Shown here: positions 2,654 to 32,331 of the stretch, one piece after another
Position numbering within the stretch: position 1 is the stretch's first letter
Layout of the letters: the number at the start of each line of letters is the position of its first letter
Sequence record: SRR20825006_2868
Reading direction: 5' to 3' (one strand)
Length of the DNA: 32,435 bases
The notes under the pieces: generated by a model
Databases searched by the model: none
What the model was told of the DNA's origin: nothing
What the model saw: only the letters and a program-made list of their open reading frames with translations
Translations under genes and position numbers: made by a program

Positions 2654-3178
2654 TTATTGTGGGTAGGTGGCAGAAAAGCCATTCCGGTTAGGCATCGTTA
2701 CCTGGGGTAATGTGACTGCATTGAGTTCCACATCGGCTTTGATTATACCATCCTGACTCAGAATATAAGCGCAAAGTGCGTAGATTTCATTACTGTTGAG
2801 CGAGTACGGAGTAGAGGGTGGCATTGAGCGCCGGATATAGTCAAACAGAGTGGTGGCGTAAGGCCAGTAGCTGTTCACTGTTTTCTCAGGGTATTCACTG
2901 GTAAGCGAACCGACTTCTCCGACCAGTGGCATGGCACTGCCACCGATGGCGCCGAAACCATGACAGGCGGCACAATGCTGATCGAACAAGGGCTTGCCCT
3001 GCGATGCTGTTCCAGAACCGGCAGGCAGACCTTGACCATCCGGGGAGATGGTCAGGTTCCATTCCGGCCTGTCGCTTAGCTCGGCAGCCGACTGGCCCAG
3101 TGGTTGATACAGCGGCTGGGCTGCCAGCGCCGGCAGCAAACCTAATAAGACCAGGGTCAGACTAATCCGGGTAAACAT
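2654..3178 (-). CDS. soxD: Monoheme c-type cytochrome, SoxD-like subunit
   Basis: Sec signal from ATG 3178 (MFTRISLTLVLLGLLPALAA), ISPDGQGLPAGSGT, a single CAACH and the SoxD-type YWPYATTLFDYIRRSMP. Overlaps the soxC 3' end by 17 bp. Confidence 0.8.
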   Translation of the reverse strand: MFTRISLTLVLLGLLPALAAQPLYQPLGQSAAELSDRPEWNLTISPDGQGLPAGSGTASQGKPLFDQHCAACHGFGAIGGSAMPLVGEVGSLTSEYPEKTVNSYWPYATTLFDYIRRSMPPSTPYSLNSNEIYALCAYILSQDGIIKADVELNAVTLPQVTMPNRNGFSATYPQ

Positions 3179-4421
3179 GGTAAATGAATCCATCCTCGCT
3201 GATTTCCCAACTGATGATGGCGTTAAAATGAAAAAAGCCATGGTGACCACGTTTTGCGAGCAGTTCATCACGGCTGGGTTGCACATAGCCTGTCTCATCG
3301 GTCGCACGACTTTGCAAAACAGCGTATTGCCCCTGCCATTGCCAGGGGAGACTAAAGCGGGTGAAGGCCTTGCTCATAACCGGTTGCTGCAGTTCGGCAT
3401 CGACCCAGCTGTCACCACCGTCAGCTGATACCTCCACCCGGATGATTTTGCCACGGCCGGACCAGGCGAGACCGGTTAACTGATAGATCCCGGGATTGTC
3501 CGGTAATGACATACCATGGGAAGGTGAGGTAATTAACGATTTGGCGGCCATTTCAAAACTGAACTGGCGGGCAGTGCCGTCGGGCAACAGGTCGGTGTAC
3601 TGGGCGGTCTCATCACGTGACATGACAGGCGCTTTCGTGACTCGAAGCTGGCGCAGCCATTTGACGTTAACGATCCCTTCCCAGCCTGGCACAACGAGAC
3701 GCAGGGGATAACCATTCTCCGGACGCAGCCGTTCTCCATTCTGATACAGCGCCAGAATCGCATCATCCAGCAGTTTTTCCAGCGGGATACTGACATTGAG
3801 TGAGGCGCCGTCAGCCGCCTCGGCGATAACCCATTTAGCATTGTTTTTGATGCCGGCTTCATGCAAAAGATATTTAACCGGGACACCGGTCCATTCAGCA
3901 TTGGAAACCAGACCGTGTGTGTAACCCGCTGCCGTTTCGATGGGCCGGCTACGCCAGCTGCTGTTGCTGTTACCACCGCATTCAATAAAACAAATCCGTG
4001 ATTGTTGTGGATAACGTTTGAGGACGTCGATTGTGAAGCTCAGCGGGGTATCAACCAGGCCGTCAATTAAAAGCATATGGGTGGCGGGATCAATATCGGG
4101 AACCCCATTGTGGTGCCGCTCAAAGTGCAGGCCATTAGGGGTAATCGTGCCCTGTAATTCATGCAGCGGCGACCAGGAAACCCCATTGCCGGGAGTGTCA
4201 GGGTTGGCAGAAATCCAGCGAATGATTTTGTTTTCGTATGGGGAGGGTTGACCGTAATTGGAAAAGCCGGCACCGGCTTGGGTCATAGACTCTGGCAAAA
4301 TGTCACGATAGTGGATATCTGGCTGTGCTGAGAGTGCCGGCAGGCTGAAGCCGGCAAACGCACCGCTCAAAGCCGTGTACTGAAGAAACTGTCGACGACT
4401 TTCAAGCGGGACTTTTTTCAT
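3162..4421 (-). CDS. soxC: Periplasmic molybdopterin sulfite-oxidase-family enzyme, SoxC-type sulfite/sulfane dehydrogenase
   Basis: Tat signal SRRQFL, ITPNGLHFERHH, Mo-ligating Cys in FIECGGN, ENGYPLRLVVPGWEG, and C-terminal dimerisation domain GLAWSG...VEVS. Confidence 0.88.
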   Translation of the reverse strand: MKKVPLESRRQFLQYTALSGAFAGFSLPALSAQPDIHYRDILPESMTQAGAGFSNYGQPSPYENKIIRWISANPDTPGNGVSWSPLHELQGTITPNGLHFERHHNGVPDIDPATHMLLIDGLVDTPLSFTIDVLKRYPQQSRICFIECGGNSNSSWRSRPIETAAGYTHGLVSNAEWTGVPVKYLLHEAGIKNNAKWVIAEAADGASLNVSIPLEKLLDDAILALYQNGERLRPENGYPLRLVVPGWEGIVNVKWLRQLRVTKAPVMSRDETAQYTDLLPDGTARQFSFEMAAKSLITSPSHGMSLPDNPGIYQLTGLAWSGRGKIIRVEVSADGGDSWVDAELQQPVMSKAFTRFSLPWQWQGQYAVLQSRATDETGYVQPSRDELLAKRGHHGFFHFNAIISWEISEDGFIYHVYPD

Positions 4422-4427
4422 GGTGTC

Positions 4428-5045
4428 TTACTCGTGGGCAATCACTGTATTGACTTCGAACCATTGATCCAGTTTGCTGACCGCCTCATCACGGCCACTT
4501 TTATTCAGCGATGAGAACAGCTGAAGCGTTGCGGCCAGTTCTGCCTGTTGCAGTTTTTTCTGCACATCCAGCAAAACAGCCCTGGCCGCGCCGTGTTTAA
4601 GCTTGTCAGACTTGGTCAGCAGAATATGCACTGGTAGTGAAGCCTGGTTAGCCCAGGTCAGCATTTGCAGGTCAAATTCTTTCAGCGGATGACGGATATC
4701 CATCATCAGCATCAGGCCACGCAAGGATTGTCGCGTTTCCAGATATTCTGCCAGCGTCGTCTGCCATTTTAGCTTCATCGCTTCAGGGACTTTGGCATAA
4801 CCATAACCGGGAAGATCGACCAACGCCCGCTGATCGTCCAGATGAAAGAAGTTAATCATCTGAGTGCGTCCAGGTGTTTTACTGGTCCGTGCCAGCGCCC
4901 GGATGCCGGTTATTGTATTGATAGCGCTGGATTTGCCGGCATTGGAGCGGCCGGCGAATGCGACTTCAGAACCATCGTCCTCAGGTAACTGGGACAGTTT
5001 GGTGGCACTCCCGCTATAATAGGCATTTCGGTAAAGCTGTGTCAT
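4428..5045 (-). CDS. engB: Ribosome biogenesis GTP-binding protein YihA/YsxC (EngB)
   Basis: G1 [17 protein letters not shown]3 DLPGYGYA, G4 TKSDK. Start taken at ATG 5045 (MTQLYRN). Confidence 0.96.
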
Positions 5046-5133
5046 GGAACCATTCTGGGTGAAAAAAAATCTTAACAAGAGTAGCATACCCAAAGTTTTA
5101 AAGATGCAAGCGCTTAGTTTTCAGGTAGAGAAG

Positions 5134-5745
5134 ATGAAAAGAATGTTGATGGCCGCTGTGCTGGGCATGGCGATGAGTACGACTCCTTTTGTGTGGGCTG
5201 CCGGTAATGTCTCGGCAGGTAAGGAAAAAGCAGCGGTATGTGCCGCCTGTCACAGCACTGATGGCAACAGTCTGTCGGATGCTTTCCCTAAGCTGGCAGG
5301 ACAGCATGAAGGCTATATCATCAAACAGCTGATGGATTATAAAAGCGGTGACCGCCAGAATGCGCTGATGGCACCGATGGCCGCCAATCTTTCAGAGCAG
5401 GATATGGCGGACCTGGCCGCTTATTTCTCCAGCCAGAAAACAGCGCCGGGCGCAGTGTCTGAAGATTTGCTGGCCGCTGGTGAAGCCATTTACCGTGCCG
5501 GTAATAAGGAAACCGGTGTCCCTGCGTGTATGGCCTGTCACGGTCCCAACGGCAGTGGTGTCCCGGCTGCTAACTGGCCGAAACTGGCATCACAGTACAG
5601 TACTTACGTGGAAACTCAGCTGCATGCTTTCGCCAAGGGCGAGCGTGCCAATGATCCTAACGGCATGATGCGTGACATCGCCAGCAAAATGACCGAAGAG
5701 GAAATCAAGGCGGTTTCTGCCTACGTCTTCGGTTTGAAACCCTAA
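5134..5745 (+). CDS. Diheme cytochrome c4 (c553 family)
   Basis: Signal peptide MKRMLMAAV...VWA, two CxxCH motifs (CAACH, CMACH) and PKLAGQ/PKLASQ repeats. Divergent from engB as in many Proteobacteria. Confidence 0.93.
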   Translation: MKRMLMAAVLGMAMSTTPFVWAAGNVSAGKEKAAVCAACHSTDGNSLSDAFPKLAGQHEGYIIKQLMDYKSGDRQNALMAPMAANLSEQDMADLAAYFSSQKTAPGAVSEDLLAAGEAIYRAGNKETGVPACMACHGPNGSGVPAANWPKLASQYSTYVETQLHAFAKGERANDPNGMMRDIASKMTEEEIKAVSAYVFGLKP

Positions 5746-5760
5746 GTAAACAAATTCACT

Positions 5761-5785
5761 GACTGCACGGCTTTTCCGTGCAGTC
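5761..5785 (+). terminator. Perfect 10-bp stem-loop between cytochrome c4 and resB (terminator or RNA stability element)
   Basis: GACTGCACGG-ctttt-CCGTGCAGTC with no downstream U-tract. Confidence 0.5.
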
Positions 5786-5824
5786 GGGCTGAATTCAGGT
5801 CTGACCTGAAACAAGGGCTCCCCC

Positions 5825-7834
5825 ATGTCACAATCACAGGACCCGCAACTGCCGCATCGCTCCTTTGCCTGGCGAGTGTTCCACTTTCTGGGCAGTATGG
5901 AATTTGCTATTACCATGCTGATTACACTGGCGATTGCGTCTGTTATCGGCACCGTGCTGCAGCAAAACCAACCTTATACCGACTATGTTATCAAGTTCGG
6001 CCCTTACTGGTTTGAAGTGTTTGAATCGCTGGGCCTTTATGATGTCTACAGTGCGCTCTGGTTTTTGGCGATTCTGACCCTGCTGGTGATTTCCACCACG
6101 GTGTGCGTGATCCGTCACGGCCCCTCCATGTTCAAGGACATGTTCAATCTGCGCACTCATGTGCAGCATAAATCCCTGCGCAGCATGCATCATCATGCTC
6201 ACTGGCATCAGCCGGGAGAGTTGGATGACAACACCATAGCGATTCGCGACAGGCTTGCATCGCAGGGATTTCGTACCCGAATTACTGAAAAGGGCGAGGA
6301 TCGCCTGGTATCGGGGATGCGCGGTGGCATGAACCGGCTCGGTTATATCCTGACCCACGTGGCCATTATTGTGATTTGTGTCGGTGGTCTGCTGGACAGT
6401 AATCTACCGCTCAAACTGGCGGAATGGCAGGGACGTCTGGAAATCGAGACCCGAAACCTGCCATTGAGCCAGATCCCCAAGGAAAGTCGACTGGCGGTCG
6501 GGCCGCAGGCATTTCGCGGCAGTGTCAGTATCCCGGAAGGCCGTGCAGCCAGTGTGGCTTATCTGCCGATGCGCGATGGCTATCTGGTGCAGAACCTGCC
6601 TTTTACTATTGAGGTCAAGGAATTCCGTATCGAGCATTACCCTACCGGTCAGCCCAAGTCATTTGAATCGGATCTGGTCATTTATGATCCGGATCTTGAG
6701 CAGCCGCTGGAACAGACCATTGCGGTGAACCACCCGCTCATCCACAAAGGCTATGCGATTTATCAGGCGAGTTTCGGTGATGGTGGTTCGGAACTGACGA
6801 TCAATGCCTGGCCGTTGTTTGCCGGGCAGGCCGAACCGACGGAACTTGAAACAAAAGTTTTTGAAACCCGTCAGATGCTCTGGGGTGACAGCGAACTGCA
6901 ACTGGAAGTCACCGGCTTCAGGCCCTTTAATATCAATCCTGACCCGACCGAGGATGACCCCAAAAATGTACGCAACTTCGGTCCCAGTATCCAGTTCAAG
7001 CTGCGCCGAGATACCGGTGAAGCACTGGAGTTTGAAAATTACATGTATCCGGTTGAGCGTGACGGCCGTGACTTTTTCCTGAGCGGGGTGCGTGGCAGTC
7101 CGTCCGAGGAGTTTGCTTACCTCTATCTGCCGGCTGATGAAGACGGCAGTATTGCGGGCTTTATTCATTTCCTGCATGCCCTGCATGACGCTGACAAGGT
7201 GTCAGCAGTGGCAGCGGAAATGAAAGATGAAACACTGGTCAGTCTGCAGAGTCAGGAGGACATCGTGCTCGGAGACAGCCTGCAGCGGACGCTGGAAACC
7301 CTGATGGCGATGTTTGTCCGTGGCGGTTTTGATGAAGTGCGCGATTTTATCGAGCAAAGCCTGCCGGAAGCTGAGCGTGATACGCTGGCACCGGCCTATC
7401 TGGCTATGCTCAGGGAAATGTTGGGACGGATTTATCTGAACTCACTCGATTTGGGACCGGAGGAAACCGTAGCAGAATCGCAGTTGCTGTTTTTACAGGA
7501 TGCGATTGATGCGGTGGGCACTTTGCCGCGTTATGGCTCACCGGTTTACCTGTCCTTGACCGACTATAATCATATTGAATCGACTGGTTTGCAGATTGCC
7601 CGGTCGCCCGGCAAAAATATTGTTTATCTGGGTTGCGCTTTCCTGATAGCTGGCGTATTTCTGCTGTTTTATCTGCCGCAACGCCGCTTCTGGGCCTGGC
7701 TCAGTCGGGATGGCGAGCAGACCCGGATTGATCTGGCCGGCATGACCAATCGCAACCCGCGTGAGTTTGATAGCTATTTCGAACAAATTCACACGCACTT
7801 GCAGTCGACAAAGCGGAACTCTGCTGCCGACTGA
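5825..7834 (+). CDS. resB: Cytochrome c biogenesis protein ResB/CcsB (system II)
   Basis: N-terminal FLGSMEFAITML...ASVIGTVLQQ, LGLYDVYSALWF, GYILTHVAII (conserved His), large periplasmic domain with VNHPL...IYQASF, C-terminal GLQIARSPG followed by a TM helix. Confidence 0.93.
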   Translation: MSQSQDPQLPHRSFAWRVFHFLGSMEFAITMLITLAIASVIGTVLQQNQPYTDYVIKFGPYWFEVFESLGLYDVYSALWFLAILTLLVISTTVCVIRHGPSMFKDMFNLRTHVQHKSLRSMHHHAHWHQPGELDDNTIAIRDRLASQGFRTRITEKGEDRLVSGMRGGMNRLGYILTHVAIIVICVGGLLDSNLPLKLAEWQGRLEIETRNLPLSQIPKESRLAVGPQAFRGSVSIPEGRAASVAYLPMRDGYLVQNLPFTIEVKEFRIEHYPTGQPKSFESDLVIYDPDLEQPLEQTIAVNHPLIHKGYAIYQASFGDGGSELTINAWPLFAGQAEPTELETKVFETRQMLWGDSELQLEVTGFRPFNINPDPTEDDPKNVRNFGPSIQFKLRRDTGEALEFENYMYPVERDGRDFFLSGVRGSPSEEFAYLYLPADEDGSIAGFIHFLHALHDADKVSAVAAEMKDETLVSLQSQEDIVLGDSLQRTLETLMAMFVRGGFDEVRDFIEQSLPEAERDTLAPAYLAMLREMLGRIYLNSLDLGPEETVAESQLLFLQDAIDAVGTLPRYGSPVYLSLTDYNHIESTGLQIARSPGKNIVYLGCAFLIAGVFLLFYLPQRRFWAWLSRDGEQTRIDLAGMTNRNPREFDSYFEQIHTHLQSTKRNSAAD

Positions 7835-7876
7835 TGTTCTTAGATTCTACGTGCGACAGCGCATTATGAGACGGAT

Positions 7877-9031
7877 ATGAGCACACAACTTTCTACCCTT
7901 GATTCAAAAAAAACCAGCCCGGCTGCCTGGGGCTGGCGGCTGTTGATGGCGTTGTCAGCAATCGGTCTGCTGAGCTTTTACAGCGACATTCTTGATGTTT
8001 ACGAAGTCTCAATCATTATTCTTACTGCGGTCGGTATGGCCTGGCTGGGCCAGAACTGGCCCGGCTATCGCTGGCACACCGTGGTCGTGGCCGTATTCAG
8101 TCTGATCGCTGTAACGATATACGGTACTGATCTGGGCCGTGCTGATAGCAGCTTCTGGCTGAATTATCTGCTTGCCAGTCAGTCGGCCTTTATGTGGATG
8201 AGTGCGTTATTCGTGATGGCCACCGTGACCTACTTCGGCGGCCTGGTTTTTCATTCCGAATTTACTGAGAAGGTTGCCAGCTTCCTGACTTGGGCGGCTA
8301 CCACCATGGGCATGATTGGGCTGATGGTGCGTTGGCGCGAGTCCTATCTGTTGGGCGCTGATATCGGTCACATCCCGGTCAGTAATCTTTATGAGGTCTT
8401 TATTTTATTTGCGGTGGTGACGGCTTTGCTTTACCTGTTCTACGAGCGGCGTTACCAGACCCGGAGCCTGGGTGGTTTTGTGCTGCTGGTCATCAGTGCC
8501 GCGGTCGCCTTCCAGCTCTGGTACACCTTTGAACGTCAGGCGCATGAAATTGAACCACTGGTACCGGCGCTGCAAAGCTACTGGATGAAAATCCATGTGC
8601 CGGCCAATTTTATCGGTTATGGCGCTTTTGCGATGGCGGCTATGATTGGCGTGGCTTATTTGTTGGTGGATAGACAGGCCGGTAAAACCGCGGTCAGCCG
8701 CTGGGTCCAGAAAATGCCGTCGCTGGCTTTGATGGATGACCTGATGTACAAAACCATCGCGCTGGGTTTTGCTTTCTTCACGCTGGCCACCATTCTGGGC
8801 GCCCTCTGGGCAGCAGAGGCCTGGGGTGGTTACTGGTCGTGGGACCCGAAAGAAACCTGGGCGCTGATTGTCTGGCTGAATTATGCTGCCTGGCTGCATA
8901 TGCGAATGACCAAGGGCTGGCATGGCGGGCCCATGGCCTGGTGGGCGATTGTGGGTCTGTTTGTGACCCTGTTTGCCTTCCTCGGCGTCAATATGTTTTT
9001 ATCCGGATTGCATTCTTACGGCACGCTTTAA
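7877..9031 (+). CDS. ccsA: Cytochrome c synthase CcsA/ResC (system II, WWD-domain heme-handling protein)
   Basis: HIPVSNLYE, PALQSYWMKIHV, WWD domain WAAEAWGGYWSWDPKETW, C-terminal GLHSYG. Confidence 0.95.
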   Translation: MSTQLSTLDSKKTSPAAWGWRLLMALSAIGLLSFYSDILDVYEVSIIILTAVGMAWLGQNWPGYRWHTVVVAVFSLIAVTIYGTDLGRADSSFWLNYLLASQSAFMWMSALFVMATVTYFGGLVFHSEFTEKVASFLTWAATTMGMIGLMVRWRESYLLGADIGHIPVSNLYEVFILFAVVTALLYLFYERRYQTRSLGGFVLLVISAAVAFQLWYTFERQAHEIEPLVPALQSYWMKIHVPANFIGYGAFAMAAMIGVAYLLVDRQAGKTAVSRWVQKMPSLALMDDLMYKTIALGFAFFTLATILGALWAAEAWGGYWSWDPKETWALIVWLNYAAWLHMRMTKGWHGGPMAWWAIVGLFVTLFAFLGVNMFLSGLHSYGTL

Positions 9032-9046
9032 TAAAAGGATATATCA

Positions 9047-9676
9047 ATGACTAAACTGTTCTCAACTTTGGCTGCAGGTCTGCTGGCTGGCTTTGTTTCC
9101 GCCTCTGCCTGGGCTGTGCCCATGTCCTATGTGGAAGGCACGCACTATTTCCCGACCACAGAAAAAATGGCCACTACCGATGCTGACAAAGTCGTTGTGG
9201 TGGAGATGTTTTCCTATACCTGCCCGCATTGCTTTGCCCTGGAGCCGGAAATTGAAGCGTGGAAGAAAAGCCTTGCTGATGATGTGAAGTTTGTTAAGGT
9301 GCCGGCGATTTTTCGTGACAGCTGGCTGGAACTCGCCCGCGTTTATTATGCGGCCGAAGCGACCGGTGATCTGGAAGCCTTACATCCCAAATTGTTCAAT
9401 GCGATCCACGTTGAAAAGCGTCGTTTGAGCACAGAAGATCAGTTGCTGGATTTTGTCGAAGAGCAAGGCATTGATCGTGAAGCCTTTGCCAAGACCATGA
9501 ATTCTTTCAGTGTCAAAGGCAAGGTCAAAAATGCCCTGATCATGAGCCGTACTTCCGGCATTACCGGTGTGCCTGCTTTTATTGTTGAGGGTAAGTACCG
9601 GACTAACGCCAGCAGCGCTGGTGGCAGCGAGCAATTGTTTGATGTGGTCGATATGCTGATAGAGCAGTCACGTTAA
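9047..9676 (+). CDS. dsbA: Periplasmic thiol:disulfide interchange protein DsbA
   Basis: Signal peptide, EMFSYTCPHC active site, cis-Pro loop GVPAF. SD AAGGA upstream. Confidence 0.93.
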   Translation: MTKLFSTLAAGLLAGFVSASAWAVPMSYVEGTHYFPTTEKMATTDADKVVVVEMFSYTCPHCFALEPEIEAWKKSLADDVKFVKVPAIFRDSWLELARVYYAAEATGDLEALHPKLFNAIHVEKRRLSTEDQLLDFVEEQGIDREAFAKTMNSFSVKGKVKNALIMSRTSGITGVPAFIVEGKYRTNASSAGGSEQLFDVVDMLIEQSR

Positions 9677-11277: not shown

Positions 11278-14328
<3,051 letters not shown>

Positions 14329-20906: not shown

Positions 20907-21251
20907 TTATTTCGGCATCAGTGCCGTGCCATGGAAAGAGACTTCATCCCAGCCTGTCTGCATGAAATTGCGGATGTTCTGATGCTCATCTCCATTTGGG
21001 TTGCCCAGCACATCCTCACGATAAAATTGACCGAAACAGGCCAGGGTCTGATCAACGCTCAGTCCGTTCAGTTGCCCGAAAGCCAGGATCTTGCAGGAGC
21101 CGTTATTCTGGCCGGCTTCGTTGAGCGTTTCGCCATTTCGAAAAGGGGTCGGGGTGAAGTGATAGTTAGCGTCAATAACCGCCATGCTGTCATCAAACTG
21201 GATAGATTCCGGTTCGTTGTTGAGTCGGTCCAGAAAGGCCTGTAATTGCAT
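20907..21251 (-). CDS. HopJ-family small conserved protein
   Basis: F.D.MAVIDANYHFTPTPF.NG, NEAGQNNGSCKILAF, FGQFYREDVL..P.G..HQNIRNFMQTGW. GGAG SD before ATG 21251. Confidence 0.85.
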   Translation of the reverse strand: MQLQAFLDRLNNEPESIQFDDSMAVIDANYHFTPTPFRNGETLNEAGQNNGSCKILAFGQLNGLSVDQTLACFGQFYREDVLGNPNGDEHQNIRNFMQTGWDEVSFHGTALMPK

Positions 21252-21267
21252 CTTGTCTCCTGCAGAT

Positions 21268-21933
21268 TTAATCGTAAAAACGGGTAAAGGTGTCGTGATA
21301 TTCGCGTGTGGTTCGGTACTGATTAACAGCCGCTGCGCTGTCTTCGTAACCGAGCGCCATGCCACACAAAAGCGTGGCTTCATCAGGGATATCAAGAAAG
21401 GTTTTCACCAGAGGTGAATATTCAGCCAGCGCAGCCTGGGGACAGGTGGCGAGGCCGGCTTCCACAGCGGCTATCATAAAGGACTGCAGGAACATGCCAA
21501 AATCGATGAAAGACCCCGCCTGCATCACATCGTCCATCCAGAACAACAGCATGACCGGCGCATCAAAAGCACGATAGTTGGCTGACCATTGTGCCCTTTG
21601 AGCGGCTTTATCCTTCCTGTCGATACCGAGGCTCTGATAAAGCTGCAGACCGCAGGCGCGACGGCGGCTGAGGTAGGGCTCCCGCCATTCCAGCGGATAG
21701 TATTCATAGTCTGGTGTCGGTTTATTACCGGCCTCAAAAGTCTCACTGATTTGCTGGCATAGCTGTTGTTTACTGTTGCCGGTCAGCACCGCTACTTGCC
21801 ATGGCTGAGTATTGGCGCCGGAGGGGGCGTGGCTGGCAATGTCCAGCAAAAAGCGGATTTGGCTTTTATCCACTGGAACCGGCAGAAAACGGCGCACGGA
21901 ATGGCGCTGTCTGATAGCGTCACTGGCTTTCAT
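21268..21933 (-). CDS. Nitroreductase-family FMN oxidoreductase
   Basis: AIRQRHSVRRF, APSGANTQPW, FDAPV, D.GMFLQSFM.AA...GLATCPQ, GMALGY. Confidence 0.9.
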   Translation of the reverse strand: MKASDAIRQRHSVRRFLPVPVDKSQIRFLLDIASHAPSGANTQPWQVAVLTGNSKQQLCQQISETFEAGNKPTPDYEYYPLEWREPYLSRRRACGLQLYQSLGIDRKDKAAQRAQWSANYRAFDAPVMLLFWMDDVMQAGSFIDFGMFLQSFMIAAVEAGLATCPQAALAEYSPLVKTFLDIPDEATLLCGMALGYEDSAAAVNQYRTTREYHDTFTRFYD

Positions 21934-23116: not shown

Positions 23117-26100
23117 ATGATTACATGGCCTGGGGGTAAACCCATCCGCATATCTATCAGAGCAACCGTCATTGGTTTTTTCCTGTTCGCCACAGTGATC
23201 ACGGCGTCTGTCGCTATCAGCCTTCAGTATTTTTTCAGCACTGATATGGCTACCGAATCCACTCTCTCGGTTTACCAGAATACGGCTGCCAGTACACGGG
23301 ATTACCTTTCCACTGTGGATAGCCGGGCCGCAGCGGCAACAAGAATTCTGTCCCAGTTCACCCGCTTTGTCGGGGACAGTGGTATTACTGCCGACTCTCG
23401 TCAGTTGTTTGCCGAGGCCATGCATCGCAATCCTTTGTTTTATGCCATTTATATCGGTTTTACCAACGGTGATTTTTATGAGCTGATCAATCTTGAAGCT
23501 GATCCGACTATCCGTAAGCAATTGCGTGCCAAGCCGGAAGACCGTTGGGTCGCTATTCGTGTTGTTGGCGAGGGTGAGCAGCGTCTTCGCCGCTTCAACT
23601 ATCTGGATGCTGACTTCAATATTCGCGTCAGCCGGGAACACAAAACCGATTACGATCCCCGCAAGCGGCCCTGGTTCACTGACGCCAGGCTCGGTGAAGT
23701 CAATAAAACCGATCCCTACCTTTTCCAGCATCTGCAGGCGCCGGGGGAAACCTATTCCACGGTCGTCCCGGATAATCAGGCGGTACTGGCACTGGATATT
23801 ACATTGTCGTCATTGTCCGGATTCCTGAATACACAGGATTTGGGTGAGGACAGTGAGATTTACCTCTATCAGCAAACCGGTGAGCTCATCGCCTCAAATC
23901 AATCTGTCAAAGAAGCCAAGGCTCTGCCGCCGGCGCCCGAGCTTCAGTTATCAGAAGCACAGCAGCGTCTGATTGATTCGATTGACTATCTTACCGTGTC
24001 CAATGAGATCGACTGGCCGCCCATCAACTTTGCTGCTTCGGGCCAGCCTTATGGTTATGCCATTGATGTATTGAAATACATCTCCGAGATGACCGGCATC
24101 CCCATTCGCTATGTTAACGGCCTCAACTGGAATGAAATGGGGCAAATGTTTCTGAGTAATGAGCTGGATGTGTTGCAGCCGGTTTTCTTTGAAGAAAACA
24201 GACAGTTACTGGGCGATCTCAGCGAGCCTTTCCTGCAGGTGCCTTACGGGGTTATCACGGCCCAAGGTAGCGAAGAAATCAAGGAGGTTGAACAGCTATT
24301 CGGGAAGACGGTCGCCATTCCCTCAGGTTGGTCCTTGGCCAATAATCTGGAAGAAAACTTTCCTCAGATAAAGATTGTACGTGTTGACGATGTGCGTGCC
24401 ATGTTCAATGCCGTCCGTGAAGGTAAAGCGGATGCAGCGATAGATACGGCGCCTATTCTGAATTACACCGCAGCACAGTTTTTTATTGAAGATGTGGTTA
24501 TCCATCAACCACTGGATTTCGGTGAAGCCACCATGCCAACCCAGTTGCATTTTATGATCAACAAATCTCAGGCAGGCCTGACTGAGATTTTTAATCAGGC
24601 CATGGCTGCACTGGGGCCTGATCACCTTCAGGCGCTGAAAGATAAATGGCTCGACGGTCGCAGTAGTGTTTCCCGCCAGCTCGGTGCCGTGCCCTATTCA
24701 GAGTTGATGCGGATGGCTCAGCAGAATGTGACGGATGATTTGCAGACAGTGTCACTCAATGGTGAAGAACATTTTGTTTATCTGACCCCCTTCGGAGAGG
24801 CGGAAGGCAAGCAGGATTACTTTGCTATTGCCACGCCGGTCGATACCGTACTGGCCCCGGGGCTGGAGAAAGTCAAAACCTCCATTCTGCTGACGACGCT
24901 GGCCGTTCTGTTGCTGGTGCCGATATCCTGGTTGCTGGCCAGCCCCATCGTAAGACCGGTTCGGCAACTGGCAGATGACAGTGAAAAAATTACGCAGAGA
25001 CGTTATGACGAGGTGCAGGAAGTCTCCAGCAACATCGTTGAGGTCAGTGATCTGGCTGGCTCCATGAGCAATATGTCAGATGCTATTCAGCGCCATGAAA
25101 AAGCGCAGGAAGAGTTGCTGGATGCCTTTATCAAAGTGATCGCACAGGCGATCGATGATAAGTCACCTCATACCGCCGGTCACTGTGAACGGGTGCCGGA
25201 ACTGGCCTTTATGCTGGTGAGGGAAGCGGAGAAATCAGACCAGGGTCCTTTTAAAGACTTTGCTTTCAAAAATGCCGAGGAATGGCGTGAGTTCCAGGTG
25301 GCTGCCTGGCTGCATGACTGCGGCAAGATCACCACGCCTGAACATATCATCGACAAGGGCACCAAGCTGGAAACGATCTATAACCGTATCCATGAAGTCC
25401 GGATGCGATTCGAAGTATTGTGGCGCGATGCTGAAATTGATTACCTGATACAGCTGGCTGAACCCGGGGCCGATAAAGCCGCATTGGAAAAACAGAAGCA
25501 CGATAAACAACAACAGTTACGTGATGATTTTGCCTTTATCGCCAACGCCAATGTCGGCGGCGAGTTCATCAGCGAAGAAGATGTCGCCAAATTGCATGAG
25601 CTGGCAGAAACGACCTGGCTGCGTTATTTCGATGATCAGCTGGGCCTGTCTTCAGGCGAAATATCTCGTTTACAGGAAGCGCCACGTCCGCTGCCGGCCA
25701 CTGAGAAATTGCTGGTGGATCGACCTGAGCACTTGATAGAACGCCAGCACAGCACCGATTTTGATCCGAAGTTCGGTATCAAAATGGAAGTGCCCGAGTA
25801 TCTTTATAATCTGGGCGAGCTGCATAATCTGGCAATATCACGCGGTACGCTGAGCGCTGAAGACCGCTTTAAAATCAATGAACACATCATCAGCACCATC
25901 AAGATGCTGGAGAGCCTGCCGTTCCCAGAAGAGCTCAAGCGGGTACCGCGCTATGCATCCACTCACCATGAGACCATGAAAGGCACCGGTTACCCGCGCA
26001 AACTGACCGGTGATGAGTTATCGATGCCGGAACGCATTATGGTACTCGCTGATATCTACGAAGCACTGACGGCGGCCGACCGGCCCTACAAAAAAGCCAA

Positions 26101-26275
26101 GCCGGTCAGTGCGGCGCTGGATATTCTGCACAAGATGGTTCAAAACGATCATATTGATGTCGAAGTCTTTGAGCTGTTCCTGCGCAGTGGTGTTTATCTC
26201 CAGTATGCTCAGCGTTTCCTGCCGGCCAAACAAATTGATGAGATTGATATCAGCAAGTACTTGCGTGACAACTGA
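23117..26275 (+). CDS. Membrane-bound HD-GYP phosphodiesterase with periplasmic dCache and solute-binding (Venus-flytrap) domains plus HAMP
   Basis: TM1; Cache motif YDPRKRPWF; SBP family-3-like LTVSNEIDWPPINF..GYAIDVL...LKDKWL; TM2; HAMP IVRPVRQLA; DDKSPHTAGHCERV, WLHDCGK, HHETMKGTGYP, ADIYEALTAADRPYK. GAGG SD. Confidence 0.88.
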   Translation: MITWPGGKPIRISIRATVIGFFLFATVITASVAISLQYFFSTDMATESTLSVYQNTAASTRDYLSTVDSRAAAATRILSQFTRFVGDSGITADSRQLFAEAMHRNPLFYAIYIGFTNGDFYELINLEADPTIRKQLRAKPEDRWVAIRVVGEGEQRLRRFNYLDADFNIRVSREHKTDYDPRKRPWFTDARLGEVNKTDPYLFQHLQAPGETYSTVVPDNQAVLALDITLSSLSGFLNTQDLGEDSEIYLYQQTGELIASNQSVKEAKALPPAPELQLSEAQQRLIDSIDYLTVSNEIDWPPINFAASGQPYGYAIDVLKYISEMTGIPIRYVNGLNWNEMGQMFLSNELDVLQPVFFEENRQLLGDLSEPFLQVPYGVITAQGSEEIKEVEQLFGKTVAIPSGWSLANNLEENFPQIKIVRVDDVRAMFNAVREGKADAAIDTAPILNYTAAQFFIEDVVIHQPLDFGEATMPTQLHFMINKSQAGLTEIFNQAMAALGPDHLQALKDKWLDGRSSVSRQLGAVPYSELMRMAQQNVTDDLQTVSLNGEEHFVYLTPFGEAEGKQDYFAIATPVDTVLAPGLEKVKTSILLTTLAVLLLVPISWLLASPIVRPVRQLADDSEKITQRRYDEVQEVSSNIVEVSDLAGSMSNMSDAIQRHEKAQEELLDAFIKVIAQAIDDKSPHTAGHCERVPELAFMLVREAEKSDQGPFKDFAFKNAEEWREFQVAAWLHDCGKITTPEHIIDKGTKLETIYNRIHEVRMRFEVLWRDAEIDYLIQLAEPGADKAALEKQKHDKQQQLRDDFAFIANANVGGEFISEEDVAKLHELAETTWLRYFDDQLGLSSGEISRLQEAPRPLPATEKLLVDRPEHLIERQHSTDFDPKFGIKMEVPEYLYNLGELHNLAISRGTLSAEDRFKINEHIISTIKMLESLPFPEELKRVPRYASTHHETMKGTGYPRKLTGDELSMPERIMVLADIYEALTAADRPYKKAKPVSAALDILHKMVQNDHIDVEVFELFLRSGVYLQYAQRFLPAKQIDEIDISKYLRDN

Positions 26276-27916: not shown

Positions 27917-27959
27917 TAAATGATAATGATTTGCATTTAGATTAAAGCGTGTTTATACT
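27917..27959 (+). promoter_or_regulatory. Fur box overlapping the -35 of a sigma70 promoter
   Basis: TAAATGATAATGATTTGCATTTA; 27922-27940 matches 13/19 of GATAATGATAATCATTATC. Promoter TTGCAT(27931)-17 bp-TATACT(27954). Confidence 0.82.
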
Positions 27960-27990
27960 CACCGTTACTGTTTTTCAGTAGGGGTGAGAT

Positions 27991-28176
27991 ATGAAGACAG
28001 CACAATTTAATCAGCAAAGCAGACATACCATTCATCTCGCTTTCAGCGAGGACCGCCTGCAAACTTTGATTGCCGAAGGCAAATTGCACGCGGCTGATTT
28101 CAACTGCCTGGATAAACCCTCCAAACGTAGCGTCTGGAGCATGTTGCTGGCGACCACAGCAAGGAAGATCTCATGA
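27991..28176 (+). CDS. Small hypothetical protein (61 aa), first gene after Fur box 1
   Basis: AGGGG SD, 31 bp downstream of the -10 box; stop overlaps the next ATG (ATGA). No family recognised. Confidence 0.68.
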   Translation: MKTAQFNQQSRHTIHLAFSEDRLQTLIAEGKLHAADFNCLDKPSKRSVWSMLLATTARKIS

Positions 28177-28442
28177 CGGCCCGTCTGCATCGTCGCCCGG
28201 ATTGGCGCCGTGAATGTCTGATTGCCGCTAACCGTCAACTGGAAAAAAACTACCAGTGCCAGCCAAGCGCTTGTGTGGCATTGCAAATCAGCCGAAATTA
28301 CCGGCTTTTGCTGACCCATTATGATCAGCCTGATATCAAGCTACTCTGGCAGCAATTATCCCAGCGCTGGTGGTCACTCTACTGCCGGCAAAGGCAACTA
28401 CCCGAACACACATTGCGAGACTTTTCAGCAGTGATTAACTAA
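28173..28442 (+). CDS. Small hypothetical protein (89 aa), Cys/Trp-rich, probably helical
   Basis: AGGAAG SD inside the upstream ORF, ATGA coupling; its stop overlaps the SD of the next ORF. Confidence 0.65.
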   Translation: MTARLHRRPDWRRECLIAANRQLEKNYQCQPSACVALQISRNYRLLLTHYDQPDIKLLWQQLSQRWWSLYCRQRQLPEHTLRDFSAVIN

Positions 28443-28451
28443 GGAGAAAAC

Positions 28452-28667
28452 ATGGCAGCAAGTTGCAGACCTCAAACCGTATTTGAATCCTCAACCGTTG
28501 ATATTCAGCACTGCCCTGACTGTCAGATGATCCATCTGACGATGGGCTCCATCACGATGCGTATGAGTGAGCATCATTTCTCTCAGTTCGCCAAAGATAT
28601 CAGCCGCGGTCTGTTTGAATTCAACACCGACAGTGTCAGTCAGCCGGGTCTGCGGGTGATGATGTAG
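28452..28667 (+). CDS. Small hypothetical protein (71 aa) with C-x15-CxxC-x3-H putative metal site
   Basis: Strong AAGGAG SD; sequence MAASC...HCPDCQMIHLTMGSITMRMSEHHF. Confidence 0.75.
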   Translation: MAASCRPQTVFESSTVDIQHCPDCQMIHLTMGSITMRMSEHHFSQFAKDISRGLFEFNTDSVSQPGLRVMM

Positions 28668-28690
28668 CATTTTTGCAACAATAAAAATTA

Positions 28691-28707
28691 ACATTTGTCA
28701 CAAATGT
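28691..28707. promoter_or_regulatory. Perfect 8-1-8 palindrome upstream of the porin promoter (candidate TF operator)
   Basis: ACATTTGT-C-ACAAATGT. Confidence 0.5.
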
Positions 28708-28716
28708 AACGAAAAC

Positions 28717-28747
28717 AAATGATAATGATTCGCACTCTGTGTATAAT
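28717..28747 (+). promoter_or_regulatory. Second Fur box overlapping the -35 of the porin operon promoter
   Basis: AAATGATAATGATTCGCACT, 18/20 identical to box 1. ATGATA(28719)-17 bp-TATAAT(28742). Confidence 0.8.
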
Positions 28748-28789
28748 TCCTCTGGTTTTAATTTTCATTTACAGATAGGAGAAAGCAGA

Positions 28790-30049
28790 GTGAGATTTAA
28801 ACGCACACTTCTGGCTACAACGCTGATGGCAGCAATGTCAGCCACTCAGGCGGCAACGCCAACCAATGAAGAAATCTGGCAACTGCTGCAGGAAATGAAG
28901 CAGGAGTTGAGTTCAGTCAAGCAACAAAACGAAGCACTGAAAGCACAAAATGAAAACCTGAAAGATCAGGTGGAAGCCACTGAAGCCAAAGCTCAGGAAG
29001 CGAGTGATGCAGCAGAGGCTGTCGCTGTAGCAAGTGAAGAGGCTATCAAAACGGCAACTGCTAAAGACGACAAAACCTCAGTGGGGGGCTATGGCGAGCT
29101 GCATTACAATAACCTGGAAAATCAGGGTGCCGGTGAGGATGTGGATGAACTGGACTTCCACCGTTTCGTCCTGTTCTTTAATCATGAGTTCAATGACCGC
29201 TTGCGTCTTTTTACCGAGTTGGAGCTGGAACATTCACTCGCTGGTGAAGGTAAAGAAGGTGAAGTCGAGCTGGAACAGGCTTTTATTCAATATGACCTGA
29301 ATGACAAGCATCGGGTTAATGCAGGTTTGTTCCTGTTACCTGTCGGCTTGTTGAATGAAACTCATGAACCGAATACCTTCTACGGTGTTGAACGTAACAG
29401 TGTGGAAAGTCGCATCATTCCAACAACCTGGTGGGAAGGTGGTCTGATGTTCAGTGGCGAACTGGCCCAAGGCTTTTCTTATGACGTCGCTGCTACCGGT
29501 GGTTTAAAAACCAGTGCCGGTAGTGATTACGCAGTTCGCAGTGGGCGTCAAAAGGTATCTGAAGCGCTGGCAGATGACTTCGCCTATACTGCTCGTTTGA
29601 AATGGACTGGCATCCCGGGCATCGAATTAGCTTCATCAATTCAGTATCAGGAAGACATTACCCAGAGTCTGGACCCGAGTGCCGGCAGTGCATTCCTGTG
29701 GGAAGCACACGCTGCGATTCAGAAAGGTGACTTTGGTCTGCGGGCACTTTATGCCACCTGGGATCTGGATGGTGATGGCCCTGAAGCCGTCGGTGCGGAT
29801 GAACAAACCGGCTGGTACATTGAGCCTTCTTATAAGCTGACTGACAGTGTGGGTATCTTCACCCGCTACAGCATGTGGGATAATCAGGCCGGTAATTCTT
29901 CAGATTCGGAAATCAAACAATGGGATCTGGGTCTGAACTGGTGGTTGGATCCACAGGTAGCGATTAAGTTCGATTACCAGGATCAGGACGCTGAAAACAA
30001 AGATGATGAATTTGATGGCTTCAACGTCGGTGTTGGCTATCAGTTCTAA
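28790..30049 (+). CDS. Outer-membrane porin (OprO/P-superfamily-like barrel) with N-terminal periplasmic coiled coil
   Basis: GTG start after AGGAGA, Sec signal (…ATQA), heptad-rich segment LLQEMKQELSSVKQQNEALKAQNENLKDQV, amphipathic beta strands, BAM signal VGVGYQF. No TonB box or plug domain evident. Confidence 0.85.
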   Translation: MRFKRTLLATTLMAAMSATQAATPTNEEIWQLLQEMKQELSSVKQQNEALKAQNENLKDQVEATEAKAQEASDAAEAVAVASEEAIKTATAKDDKTSVGGYGELHYNNLENQGAGEDVDELDFHRFVLFFNHEFNDRLRLFTELELEHSLAGEGKEGEVELEQAFIQYDLNDKHRVNAGLFLLPVGLLNETHEPNTFYGVERNSVESRIIPTTWWEGGLMFSGELAQGFSYDVAATGGLKTSAGSDYAVRSGRQKVSEALADDFAYTARLKWTGIPGIELASSIQYQEDITQSLDPSAGSAFLWEAHAAIQKGDFGLRALYATWDLDGDGPEAVGADEQTGWYIEPSYKLTDSVGIFTRYSMWDNQAGNSSDSEIKQWDLGLNWWLDPQVAIKFDYQDQDAENKDDEFDGFNVGVGYQF

Positions 30050-30072
30050 TCGAGACTGATGCAGGTGTGGTG

Positions 30073-30612
30073 ATGATGAACAGCATGACAAAACAATCTC
30101 TTTCGACAGCGCTGATTGCCGTTGTGCTGTTTGTCATTACCACTGCTGCCAGTGCCCGGGGTGTTTATCAGACCAATGATGAATTCCTTAATGAAGTTTT
30201 CAGCCAGCAGGTGCCGAAAAGTGATGTGGTCTGGCTAAAAGGTGAAGTGCGGGAGCAGGTCAAGGCGATTATGGGCCACCATTATGCCGGATTGCGGATC
30301 CGTTACTGGATGAAAAATGAACGCAGTGCCTGGATCCTCGAAGAAATCGGTAAGGAAGAACCCATTACCTTTGGCGTCGTCGTCAATGGCGACAAGGTAG
30401 AAAGGGTAAAAGTGCTGGCCTATCGTGAAAGCCGTGGCTGGGAAGTCAAACACCCCGCTTTTACCCAGCAATTTAGCGATGCGAAACTGGAAAACAACGA
30501 ACTGGATCGCAATATTGACGGCATTACCGGTGCAACGCTGTCCGTCAGGGCTATGACTGCGGTAGTGACACTGGCATTATATCTTGATGAGTTTGTCAGC
30601 ACACAGAGTTAA
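30073..30612 (+). CDS. Periplasmic FMN-binding (RnfG/NqrC/NosR-type FMN_bind domain) protein
   Basis: Signal peptide ending ASA, EEIGKEEPIT, YRESRGWEV, F..QF, and flavinylation motif DGITGAT (30517-30537). Start is uncertain among 30067-30085. Confidence 0.85.
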   Translation: MMNSMTKQSLSTALIAVVLFVITTAASARGVYQTNDEFLNEVFSQQVPKSDVVWLKGEVREQVKAIMGHHYAGLRIRYWMKNERSAWILEEIGKEEPITFGVVVNGDKVERVKVLAYRESRGWEVKHPAFTQQFSDAKLENNELDRNIDGITGATLSVRAMTAVVTLALYLDEFVSTQS

Positions 30613-30615
30613 TCT

Positions 30616-31332
30616 ATGAATCGCAGAATGCGAAGCCTGCACCGCAGCATGGGCGTAGCGGTCGCGCTGTTCCTGCTGTTGTTTGCCGCAACAGGGGTCA
30701 TTCTTAACCATTCCGCCCAATTCAAATTGAATCAACGCTACATCAGCTCAGACTGGTTGATGAGCCATTATGGTATCGGTAGTGCAGAGGCCGATATTTC
30801 CTTCCTGGTAGATAATAAAATCATTTCCCAATTCGATACCCAACTGTTTGTCGATGCCGAGCCGATAACGCATTTGGATCGACCACTGGTCGGGGCTATC
30901 ATGCTGGAAGACTTGATTGTACTGGCCACCGACCAGGCGCTGGTACTGCTTACCCATCAAGGGGAGCTTGTTGAAAGAATGGGGGCCGAAGTGGGTGTAC
31001 CGGCACCGATTCAGAACATCGGCACCTATCATGGCGAACCGGTATTACAGGCCCGCAATGGTATGTGGCGCAGCAATTTTATGCTCGATATCTGGGAACC
31101 GATGTCATTACAGGGCGTCTCATGGAGTAGGCCCCATCCCATGCCTGACAGTGTTGCAGAAGAGCTGAAAACCTTCTTTTACGGCAAAGGGGTGACAGTC
31201 GAGCAGTTATTAATCGATATTCACAACGGCCGTATTCTGGGGACGGCGGGTATCTGGTTAATTGATATTCTGGGCATCCTGCTGGTGGTTCTGTCTTTCA
31301 CCGGTCTGTGGATGTGGGGAAGAAGGCTGTAA
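30616..31332 (+). CDS. PepSY-associated TM-helix inner-membrane protein (VciB-like putative heme-b reductase)
   Basis: LHRSMG-TM-TGVILNH at the N-terminus, a periplasmic loop, then DIHNGRILG-TM-TGLWMW at the C-terminus (conserved His next to TM helices). Confidence 0.8.
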   Translation: MNRRMRSLHRSMGVAVALFLLLFAATGVILNHSAQFKLNQRYISSDWLMSHYGIGSAEADISFLVDNKIISQFDTQLFVDAEPITHLDRPLVGAIMLEDLIVLATDQALVLLTHQGELVERMGAEVGVPAPIQNIGTYHGEPVLQARNGMWRSNFMLDIWEPMSLQGVSWSRPHPMPDSVAEELKTFFYGKGVTVEQLLIDIHNGRILGTAGIWLIDILGILLVVLSFTGLWMWGRRL

Positions 31333-31368: not shown

Positions 31369-32331
31369 ATGAGACAGACAGAGTTCCCTTATTTACCCAA
31401 GGACTTTGTCCAGACTGCTGATGGTCTCATCTTCGCTGTGGTCAGTTACCATCCTCATCAGGGTAAAGTCGGTTGTTTTCTGCGTTATGTCGATAACGGC
31501 GACAGCTGGCAGAAAATTGATACCCTGCATGCCAATCGGCTGCTTTCCCGCCATCATCCGCAATACCTCTATAAATCCAAACAGTTCGATGCTGAATTTC
31601 ATGCTGTAGATGTCGCTGACATTGCCGCTCATCACCGGCCTGAAGTTCGTCTGAAGACGCTTAAAAATCAGCCTGAGCCGACTGATGAAATCGAAGAAAA
31701 GCTATCCCGCCTGCTCACTATTTTGGTGCAGTTTGGTGTGGATTGTGACTTTTTGGGGCTGACCGGATCGATGTTGATTGCTAATCAGAAAGCCGGTTCG
31801 GATATTGATTTGGTGGTTTACGGCCGTGAGGCATTTCATCAAACCCGCCACGCAGTGAGACAGGCCATAGCTTCCGGGCTGCTCGAGGAGCTGGATCTGT
31901 CGCTGATGCGGGACAATTTCCAACGCCGCGGCGGTGAACTGAATTTTGAAGAATTTGCCTGGCATGAATCTCGCAAATTCAATAAAGCAGCAATTGATGG
32001 CACCAAGTTTGATATCGGTATGGTTTCGCTCCCGCAAGAGCTGGAACCCGAGCATCGTCATTACATCAAACAGGGAATCTCAACCGTCAAAGCCACCGTG
32101 ATCGATGATCACCGCGCTTTCGATTTTCCTGCCCATTATCTGATTGATAACGAAATGACGCCCGAAGTGGTGTCATTTACGCATACCTATGTCGGCCAGG
32201 CTCAGGTTGGGGAGACCATTGAGATCACAGGTGCTGTTGAATGTGACTCTGCCTCCGGTCAAAGACGACTGGTGGTGGGATCGACGCGAGAAGCTATTGG
32301 TGAATACATAAAGGTGTGTAGAGAATTATGA
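31369..32331 (+). CDS. Predicted nucleotidyltransferase (pol-beta superfamily), resembling the archaeal COG1665 type
   Basis: GLTGS-x10-DID motif, N-terminal [17 protein letters not shown]-fold-like C-terminus [15 protein letters not shown]...[17 protein letters not shown]. Confidence 0.72.

Follow-up and report, generated by a model that had tools for sequence, protein, structure and literature searches.

Gene content and conservation of the locus

The 32,435-nt stretch of DNA analysed here (one strand of sequence record SRR20825006_2868; hereafter the window) carries three adjacent plus-strand genes encoding an outer-membrane (OM) porin, a predicted exported flavoprotein of the FMN_bind family and a membrane protein of the PepSY_TM family. 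A preliminary description of the sequence had proposed that this trio forms a Fur-regulated, TonB-independent system for reductive iron uptake. The trio is real, conserved and uncharacterised, and is a variant form of a flavinylated class already known from bioinformatics. The window contains 69 open reading frames (ORFs) of at least 90 amino acids (aa), 33 of which were scanned with Pfam, the remainder being mostly overlapping frames. In this profile search all three members exceeded the Pfam cut-offs, namely the porin (28790..30049, plus strand, 419 aa; Porin_O_P, E 1.3e-12), the FMN_bind protein (30073..30612, plus strand, 179 aa; FMN_bind, E 1.7e-10) and the PepSY_TM protein (30616..31332, plus strand, 238 aa; PepSY_TM, E 2.6e-17). 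The gaps between them are 17 nt (from the porin to the first possible start of the FMN_bind gene, 30067) and 3 nt, confirming the close spacing and common orientation described earlier. The porin most likely starts at the GTG at 28790, behind an AGGAG, rather than at 28739. No NCBIfam model names any of the three proteins; their nearest named homologs are from Methylophaga, close ones being annotated in Methylophaga thalassica.

Species genomes were scanned with the flavoprotein, and the best 80 of at least 584 loci confirmed among at least 600 matched stretches were taken as the locus set. The order porin, FMN_bind gene (FMN gene), PepSY gene within 1.5 kb was found in 73 of the 80 loci, a count that leans high because the profiles were built from those loci. 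The seven exceptions are three contig ends (L025, L031, L048), two loci with no PepSY gene (L016, L020), one with the porin 2 kb off (L044) and one with no porin hit (L079). In addition, 300 scored genomes of the class were sampled at thresholds of 1e-3 for the flavoprotein, 1e-20 for the porin and 1e-10 for the PepSY protein, which were carried by 65, 67 and 65 genomes, respectively. Of the 72 genomes with at least one of them, 60 had the complete trio (about 3 expected under independence; 55 of 67 without the five alignment genomes), a statistic that is inflated by kinship; genome G087 is in the porin, PepSY and "any" tallies and outside the 60. Because the sample included five query genomes, it was not drawn at random, and the figure of 20% does not give the frequency in the class as a whole. 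The porin and the FMN gene occur together in 64 of the 68 genomes holding either. The trio thus recurs in other genomes, as the preliminary description needed it to, and its carriers include Methylophaga, Methylophilales, sulfur-oxidiser-type bacteria and many uncultured gammaproteobacteria.

Predicted structures of the three proteins

In an AlphaFold model (mean predicted local distance difference test, pLDDT, 83), the porin consists of a signal peptide, an N-terminal helix of 58 residues (26-83, predicted coiled coil) and a 16-strand barrel starting at residue 96, with no plug. The model and the absence of a Pfam Plug match agree with the plug-less OM barrel described earlier, and identity as a TonB-dependent receptor, which has 22 strands and an N-terminal plug, was rejected on the same grounds. 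The best fold match is OprP (2o4v; Z 27.2, root-mean-square deviation (rmsd) 3.8, 309 aligned residues, 17% identity), followed by PorB (Z 25.1) and DcaP (6eus, Z 24.1), with TonB receptors and MtrB at 12.6 or below. PDB sequence searches with the porin returned nothing at E 0.1 or better. The porin family comprises 985, 2394 and 4138 representatives (clusters at 50% identity) at E 1e-30, 1e-10 and 1e-3, respectively.

Residues E103, H105, D122, R125, E143, E145, E147, H148, E162, H192 and E193 of the porin are invariant, and 9 Glu, 4 Asp, 5 His, 7 Arg and 1 Lys are conserved in at least 90% of 68 porin rows. The barrel contains 57 Asp/Glu versus 21 Lys/Arg. With lumen orientation deduced from strand alternation, E103/H105 and E143/E145/E147 alternate on the modelled strands 1 and 3, an arrangement suggesting that their side chains point into the pore. 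These conserved acidic and His residues, together with their alternation on strands 1 and 3, make metal selectivity of the modelled pore plausible. The porin shares the 16-strand Porin_O_P fold of the OprP/OprO class; as to the arginine ladder and phosphate control of that class, its barrel is net acidic and the pho box is not enriched upstream, but seven conserved Arg remain.

The trio proteins cover all envelope compartments, and the porin has its 58-residue periplasmic helix. Both features would suit electron export, in which the flavoprotein docks on the porin stalk and iron minerals or colloids are reduced at the cell surface. We regard this as very unlikely, since none of the three proteins contains Cys and hence none contains CxxCH, the MtrB chain 6r2q matches the porin at Z 12.0 and rmsd 9.9 versus Z 27.2 for OprP, and a barrel of 16 strands whose loop 3 region (183-214) is long would probably be too narrow for a protein of 150 residues.

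As described earlier, the FMN_bind protein retains an intact DGITGAT motif, in which codon 30535-30537 is ACG and encodes Thr155. G153-A154-T155 is invariant in 80 of 80 alignment rows, and [ST]GA[ST] is present in 120 of 120 homologs among the matches listed. ApbE is described as attaching FMN (flavin mononucleotide) at [S/T]GA[S/T] motifs (PMC11334425). The protein is predicted to be exported, its signal peptide being judged by eye, and to be flavinylated at Thr155, the motif of ApbE substrates lying in its exported FMN_bind domain. PDB sequence searches with the flavoprotein gave nothing at E 0.1 or better. A stray RnfG/NqrC subunit was rejected as its identity, because RnfG models scored 21-27 bits against cut-offs of 102-230 and neither rnf nor nqr genes are among the recurrent neighbours. 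No FMN-PepSY fusion was found in the best 7999 candidates of 488-2000 aa, the range of 418-487 aa lying outside this search.

The earlier statement that the window holds neither apbE nor an Fe(II) permease is true of the 33 Pfam-scanned ORFs. No apbE adjoins the unit in the 80 loci; in one distant variant, L128, apbE comes right after the FMN gene. Genome-wide, apbE was present in all 50 carrier genomes submitted (from 50 of the 80 loci), a set to which the window's own genome does not belong.

The PepSY_TM protein is modelled (pLDDT 92.5) as a first transmembrane helix (TM1), a predicted three-blade beta-propeller fragment and a second helix (TM2). Both the model and alignment-averaged hydropathy give only two TM helices, a weak peak at residue 94 falling in predicted beta strands. 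Residues 55-171 match propeller proteins over about three blades, with Z up to 9.6 and many tied rows. Of the earlier claim of a PepSY-TM protein with His residues beside its TM helices, the Pfam family and the residues themselves (His9, His32 and His203) therefore stand, and the periplasmic part is predicted to be a propeller fragment rather than PepSY. A 93-row profile searched against the PDB found FoxB (7ABW) as its sole match (E 9.8e-8), matching both FoxB halves: the N-terminus pairs with FoxB TM1 and TM3 and the C-terminus with TM2 and TM4, with two of these four aligned segments weak by themselves. The FoxB-aligned residues H9, R10, R237, H203 and R206 are conserved in 86, 79, 69, 90 and 76 of the 93 rows, respectively, and His32 in 92. 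Of 71 locus rows, 69 retain all three His; of the other two, one is N-masked and one has His32Arg. In fold searches of the PepSY model, the matches listed are taken up by the propeller domain and do not include FoxB, which is no evidence against homology. The protein is half of FoxB with its heme ligands retained and so likely a homodimer; as one chain has two TMs, the full di-heme site would need a dimer. A natural 499-aa tandem of the half unit also exists (P0241).

Four copies of the PepSY gene have no FMN gene directly before them (the second copy in L001, L133, L134 and L130). All of them lack His9 and two also lack His203, which fits a heme chain kept only while it served a flavoprotein partner. 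Two of these loci carry other genes at the site of the relatives' porin and FMN genes, next to the remaining His9-less PepSY copy: a TonB receptor and a PKHD hydroxylase in L134 (834-4789) and a ferritin in L133 (3980-5251).

Fur-type boxes, neighbouring genes and variant units

A Fur-type box, P2 (28717..28737, plus strand; AAATGATAATGATTCGCACTC), lies ahead of the porin and scores 15/18 against a gammaproteobacterial 19-mer. None of 300 shuffles of the upstream 265 nt reached 15. The classic E. coli 19-mer Fur box gave no match at three or fewer mismatches, and P2 agrees with it at 14/19. P2 overlaps a predicted sigma-70 promoter (28719..28747, plus strand; ATGATA-17-TATAAT, 10/12 matches) with a -35 ATGATA matching at 4/6 and a perfect -10 TATAAT at 28742-28747. 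The preliminary description had placed a Fur box on the -35 of a good promoter. The box and its overlap with the -35 were recovered, and the quality of the promoter comes from the -10, because the promoter scan is by itself at chance level (6 sites versus 5.6 in shuffles). Directly upstream of P2, at 28689-28709, there is a near-perfect inverted repeat (TAACATTTG-3-CAAATGTAA), a possible site for a second regulator.

The best Fur match in the window is a further box, P1 (27918..27938, plus strand; 19/21), ahead of three small plus-strand ORFs of 61, 89 and 71 aa (27991..28667), which are absent from the preliminary description. The right arm of P1, TTGCAT, is the predicted -35, with TATACT (27954-27959) 17 nt later; P2 differs in that its left arm covers the -35. 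Among the 50 boxes scoring at least 13, an A/T-rich, -10-like stretch lies 16-17 nt after the right arm TTGCAT. A Fur-like match (15/19) at 11394-11413 lies within the N-terminal part of a peptidase U32 ORF, unless that ORF starts later, in which case the match precedes it.

The porin frame is uncut in 68 loci. Scoring covered 62 of them and omitted one with a broken porin and five with less than 250 nt upstream. A box of at least 14/18 was found ahead of the porin in 42 of the 62; in the controls, such scores were reached in 1.7% of dinucleotide shuffles, in 1 of 54 regions downstream and in 13 of 519 further upstream regions. The motif also occurs ahead of feoA (at least 15 in 5 of 5) and bfd (at least 13 in 11 of 13), some of which share the porin intergenic region. 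A box that overlaps a predicted promoter and is kept in relatives points to membership of the Fur regulon, as judged by the consensus used. The mean score of the porin upstream regions is 14.1 versus 10.7 in shuffles for the Fur consensus, and no enrichment was found in them for the pho (8.8 versus 8.7) or Zur (12.4 versus 12.2) consensus, so that phosphate or zinc control finds no support. Iron genes lie within 1.5 kb of the unit in 22 of the 80 loci, bfr/bfd in 13 and feo in 9.

These data also bear on whether the substrate of the unit might be something other than iron, for instance copper, zinc or phosphate. A link to copper is reported for the PepSY_TM protein CrpH (PMC13038864), and both the Pfam family and the best fold match of the porin are phosphate porins. 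The upstream regions, however, fit the Fur consensus and not the pho or Zur consensus, and the recurrent neighbours are iron genes, leaving such a solute hardly probable.

The three small ORFs are likely co-transcribed with the trio; no terminator-like site was found ahead of the porin. Their homologs were found by tblastn in 7, 7 and 5 of the loci searched, and they are accessory, occurring only in Methylophaga-type loci. ORF A weakly resembles PA4570, since NF050178 matches all five ORF A sequences at E 0.005-0.09, far under its cut-off. In ORF C a CxxC is conserved, and DUF6686 matches weakly. L133 and L134 lack the porin and FMN genes yet retain the small ORFs. Contigs start at 27967 (run X5, guessed to be RNA) and 27966 (X6, of unknown kind), 7-8 nt past the P1 -10. 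The X5 contig continues through P2 to 28762, and X5 and X6 both end near 30161-30174, where a DNA contig goes on. These contigs hint weakly at a transcript that starts at P1 and runs through the porin; the adapter-like loose end at 27967 recurs at four other places in X5. All four runs consist of contigs, and the one recorded RNA run covers small pieces only, so these data are uninformative on expression or iron regulation.

Between the PepSY gene and gnd lies a 320-aa gene (31369-32331) with weak nucleotidyltransferase matches (E 0.004), which is conserved in Methylophaga-type loci. This gene and gnd were rejected as members of the unit, since they adjoin the trio only in Methylophaga-type loci and persist where the trio is lost. 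Elsewhere in the window are a 1052-aa sensor with dCache, solute-binding, HAMP and HD domains (23117-26275), a cluster of cytochrome c, resB, ccsA and dsbA genes (5044-9676) and a small ORF with a Pfam HopJ match that adjoins a nitroreductase gene (20907-21395), likely a housekeeping homolog. A molybdopterin oxidoreductase with a cytochrome c (2654-4421) is a pair that we take to be SorAB/SoxCD-like.

In the distant variants listed, the porin and the FMN gene persist with other small membrane proteins, one of them with weak cytochrome b561/DUF4405 matches. The porin-flavoprotein pair thus looks like the core of the unit, the PepSY half being one of several electron donors. The two loci lacking a PepSY gene (L016, 8670-10459; L020, 2546-4378) are from OM43-type genomes and have a Fur box, a porin and an FMN gene, with no PepSY match genome-wide. 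L124 (5340-8373) has a five-gene form in which imelysin and DHOR genes, assigned by Pfam, are inserted between the porin and the FMN gene; L123 (1696-2907) has a like insertion, by resemblance only, and L132 and L135 have imelysin and DHOR genes beside porin paralogs. Imelysin-like proteins are described as having a likely role in iron uptake (PMC3143127). In L121 (5428-7356) and L122 (5954-7924), the insert between the porin and the FMN gene encodes a lipoprotein-like protein of 640-660 aa with little or no Pfam match, together with DUF2325 behind a second Fur-type box. In L136 (2948-5638) and L145 (4016-6695), DUF6662 takes the place of the porin before a distant FMN-binding gene, and L145 also has apbE.

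Several variants have, in or beside the unit, a gene for DHOR, for a MauG-like di-heme protein or for a putative cytochrome lipoprotein of 640 aa, and Méheust et al. propose that flavinylated carriers can stand in for cytochromes and so spare iron (PMC8238504). The flavoprotein might accordingly be an iron-sparing periplasmic electron carrier, induced at low iron and feeding periplasmic redox enzymes instead of reducing iron, with electrons flowing in either direction. We consider this quite unlikely, because most loci are without such redox enzymes and the strict link to the porin would be unexplained.

TonB-receptor plugs were found in 59 of 60 trio genomes (median 4) versus 160 of 237 others (median 2), with four genomes omitted and per-genome counts of 15 or more taken as 15. 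Among genomes with any TonB receptor, trio genomes and others do not differ (p 0.59). Replacement of TonB receptors by the trio is therefore refuted, and the unit would supplement them rather than replace them. Accordingly, of the term "TonB-independent" in the preliminary description, what is kept is the modelled plug-less fold of the porin, and the trio genomes themselves are not devoid of TonB receptors. Retained receptors would also suit a heme-flavin pair that serves as a general periplasmic reductase for TonB-imported Fe(III) chelates, with the porin co-regulated and either carrying another solute or anchoring the OM by its stalk. The characterised PepSY_TM proteins are siderophore reductases, as far as the available accounts go, and L134 has a TonB receptor gene where its relatives have the porin and FMN genes. 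We nevertheless regard this as unlikely, since the porin and the FMN gene stay together even when the membrane partner changes and the periplasmic domain is unlike the FoxB PepSY cavity; one TonB-receptor query, of limited sensitivity, also gave no hit in the 80 loci.

Proposed route of iron and comparison with known systems

The reading that we favour as reasonably probable is that iron enters through a Fur-controlled porin and that Fe(III) is reduced in the periplasm by a heme-to-FMN relay for uptake, with a permease acting in trans. The reductive iron uptake proposed in the preliminary description is supported by the co-occurrence of the genes, the Fur-type box, the flavinylation motif, the heme ligands, the plug-less fold, the iron neighbours and apbE in relatives, and we infer the remaining steps. 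Low iron would very probably release Fur from the two boxes, whose motif and conservation are observed. Small inorganic or weakly chelated iron may then, on a slight balance of the evidence, diffuse through the plug-less porin of the model along a Glu/Asp/His cluster on strands 1-4, without TonB. Two half-size PepSY_TM chains, by their homology to FoxB, would quite likely form a FoxB-like four-helix bundle in which His9 and His9' hold a cytoplasm-side heme and His203 and His203' a periplasm-side heme, and their two three-blade fragments might close into one propeller. An ApbE encoded elsewhere is expected, with high confidence from the motif, to attach FMN to Thr155 of the secreted protein. 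Electrons would fairly probably be handed from heme to FMN and on to Fe(III), and Fe(II) would be imported by the host's own permease (Feo, FTR1- or ZIP-type). FTR1 matched in four of five Methylophaga genomes (strongly in three) and ZIP in all five.

Several points weigh against this reading. No experiment on any trio member was found. In addition to 13 Asp/Glu and 5 His, the porin conserves 7 Arg and 1 Lys, and it is a phosphate porin that matches its fold best. As trio genomes show no depletion of TonB receptors, the reductase could act on chelates imported through TonB. Each of the five Methylophaga genomes tested holds 3-4 FMN_bind genes, so the presence of apbE is not specific to the trio. 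FeoB (FeoB_C) was found in 27 of 50 carriers, many genomes being fragmented, and was not found in G001, the closest relative. On a tree built with a quick method the iron neighbours cluster, indicating few independent events, and the four orphan PepSY copies represent at most three. The small genomes G013 and G017, possibly incomplete, keep the porin and FMN genes with no PepSY match.

More tentatively, and with some doubt, the unit may represent a widespread, uncharacterised siderophore-free iron route of marine and sediment bacteria, in which an OprP-fold, metal-selective porin dedicated to this route and bearing an acidic/His ladder is combined with a covalently flavinylated ferric reductant in the periplasm. 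The reductant would be recharged by a di-heme cytochrome of minimal, homodimeric build, a one-unit counterpart of the tandem architecture of FoxB, and the porin-flavoprotein core would take interchangeable membrane donors. Proteobacterial uptake of unchelated or weakly bound iron across the OM is poorly explained, and the precedent for a porin is cyanobacterial. If true, the trio would provide a three-gene marker and a direct experimental system for the study of marine reductive iron uptake that needs no siderophore, as well as a minimal model of PepSY_TM reductases.

No literature description of the trio was found by title or abstract start, in a search that left subscription papers mostly outside; the cluster table of Méheust et al. 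may list the trio. The word "porin" does not occur in the main text of PMC8238504, and neither "Methylophaga" nor "PF07396" gave a hit in 5,406 characters of the supplements. The closest described relative is the PepSY-like flavinylated class (PMC8238504; Huang et al. 2024, PMC11334425), with which the trio shares a PF03929/PF16357 membrane protein beside a flavinylation gene. The operational definition given by Méheust et al., PF03929 or PF16357 close to an FMN-binding or apbE gene, applies here with the two genes 3 nt apart, and Fur control and iron reduction are already proposed for the class (PMC8238504). As described there, the class mostly has DUF2271 (2833 of 3220), ApbE, DUF4198 and three-TM proteins. 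In contrast, the trio has an FMN_bind substrate, no apbE in 80 of 80 loci, two TMs and a nearly obligatory porin; DUF2271, DUF4198 and ApbE are absent from the scanned window ORFs, and neither DUF was found in 37 neighbour clusters scanned.

FoxB of Pseudomonas aeruginosa (PDB 7ABW) is described as a protein that reduces ferrioxamine in nanodiscs and whose four helices supply the His ligands of two b hemes; H198 binds the cytoplasmic heme, and R10, K373 and R342 contact the propionates (10.1101/2021.01.28.428567). The trio protein keeps the His-TM-periplasmic domain-His-TM unit with aligned heme ligands and propionate contacts, at one set of His and Arg/Lys positions per chain (H9/R10/R237, H203/R206), so that the full set would need a dimer. 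FoxB is a 382-aa protein with four TMs and two PepSY domains, encoded alongside a TonB receptor, and the available part of its description mentions no flavoprotein gene in the operon. The trio protein corresponds to one half, with 238 aa, two TMs, a periplasmic part predicted to be an all-beta propeller fragment and the extra conserved His32. The PepSY_TM proteins compared in PMC13038864 are all described as having at least four TMs. VciB of Vibrio cholerae, likened here by description only, is a PepSY-like protein reported as an extracytosolic iron reductase, to which no flavinylation components are linked according to PMC8238504.

On the porin side, OprP/OprO and DcaP share the 16-strand fold (2o4v, Z 27.2; 6eus, Z 24.1), whereas the trio porin has at most 17% identity to them, no PDB sequence match, an acidic barrel and a Fur-type rather than a pho-type upstream site. 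Slr1908 of Synechocystis, a suggested iron-selective porin whose mutant is reported to contain about 40% less iron (PMC8707739), is a precedent for iron entry by a porin; it belongs to the SLH/OprB family, no linked flavoprotein or PepSY_TM gene is described in the available account, and it is likened to the trio porin by description only.

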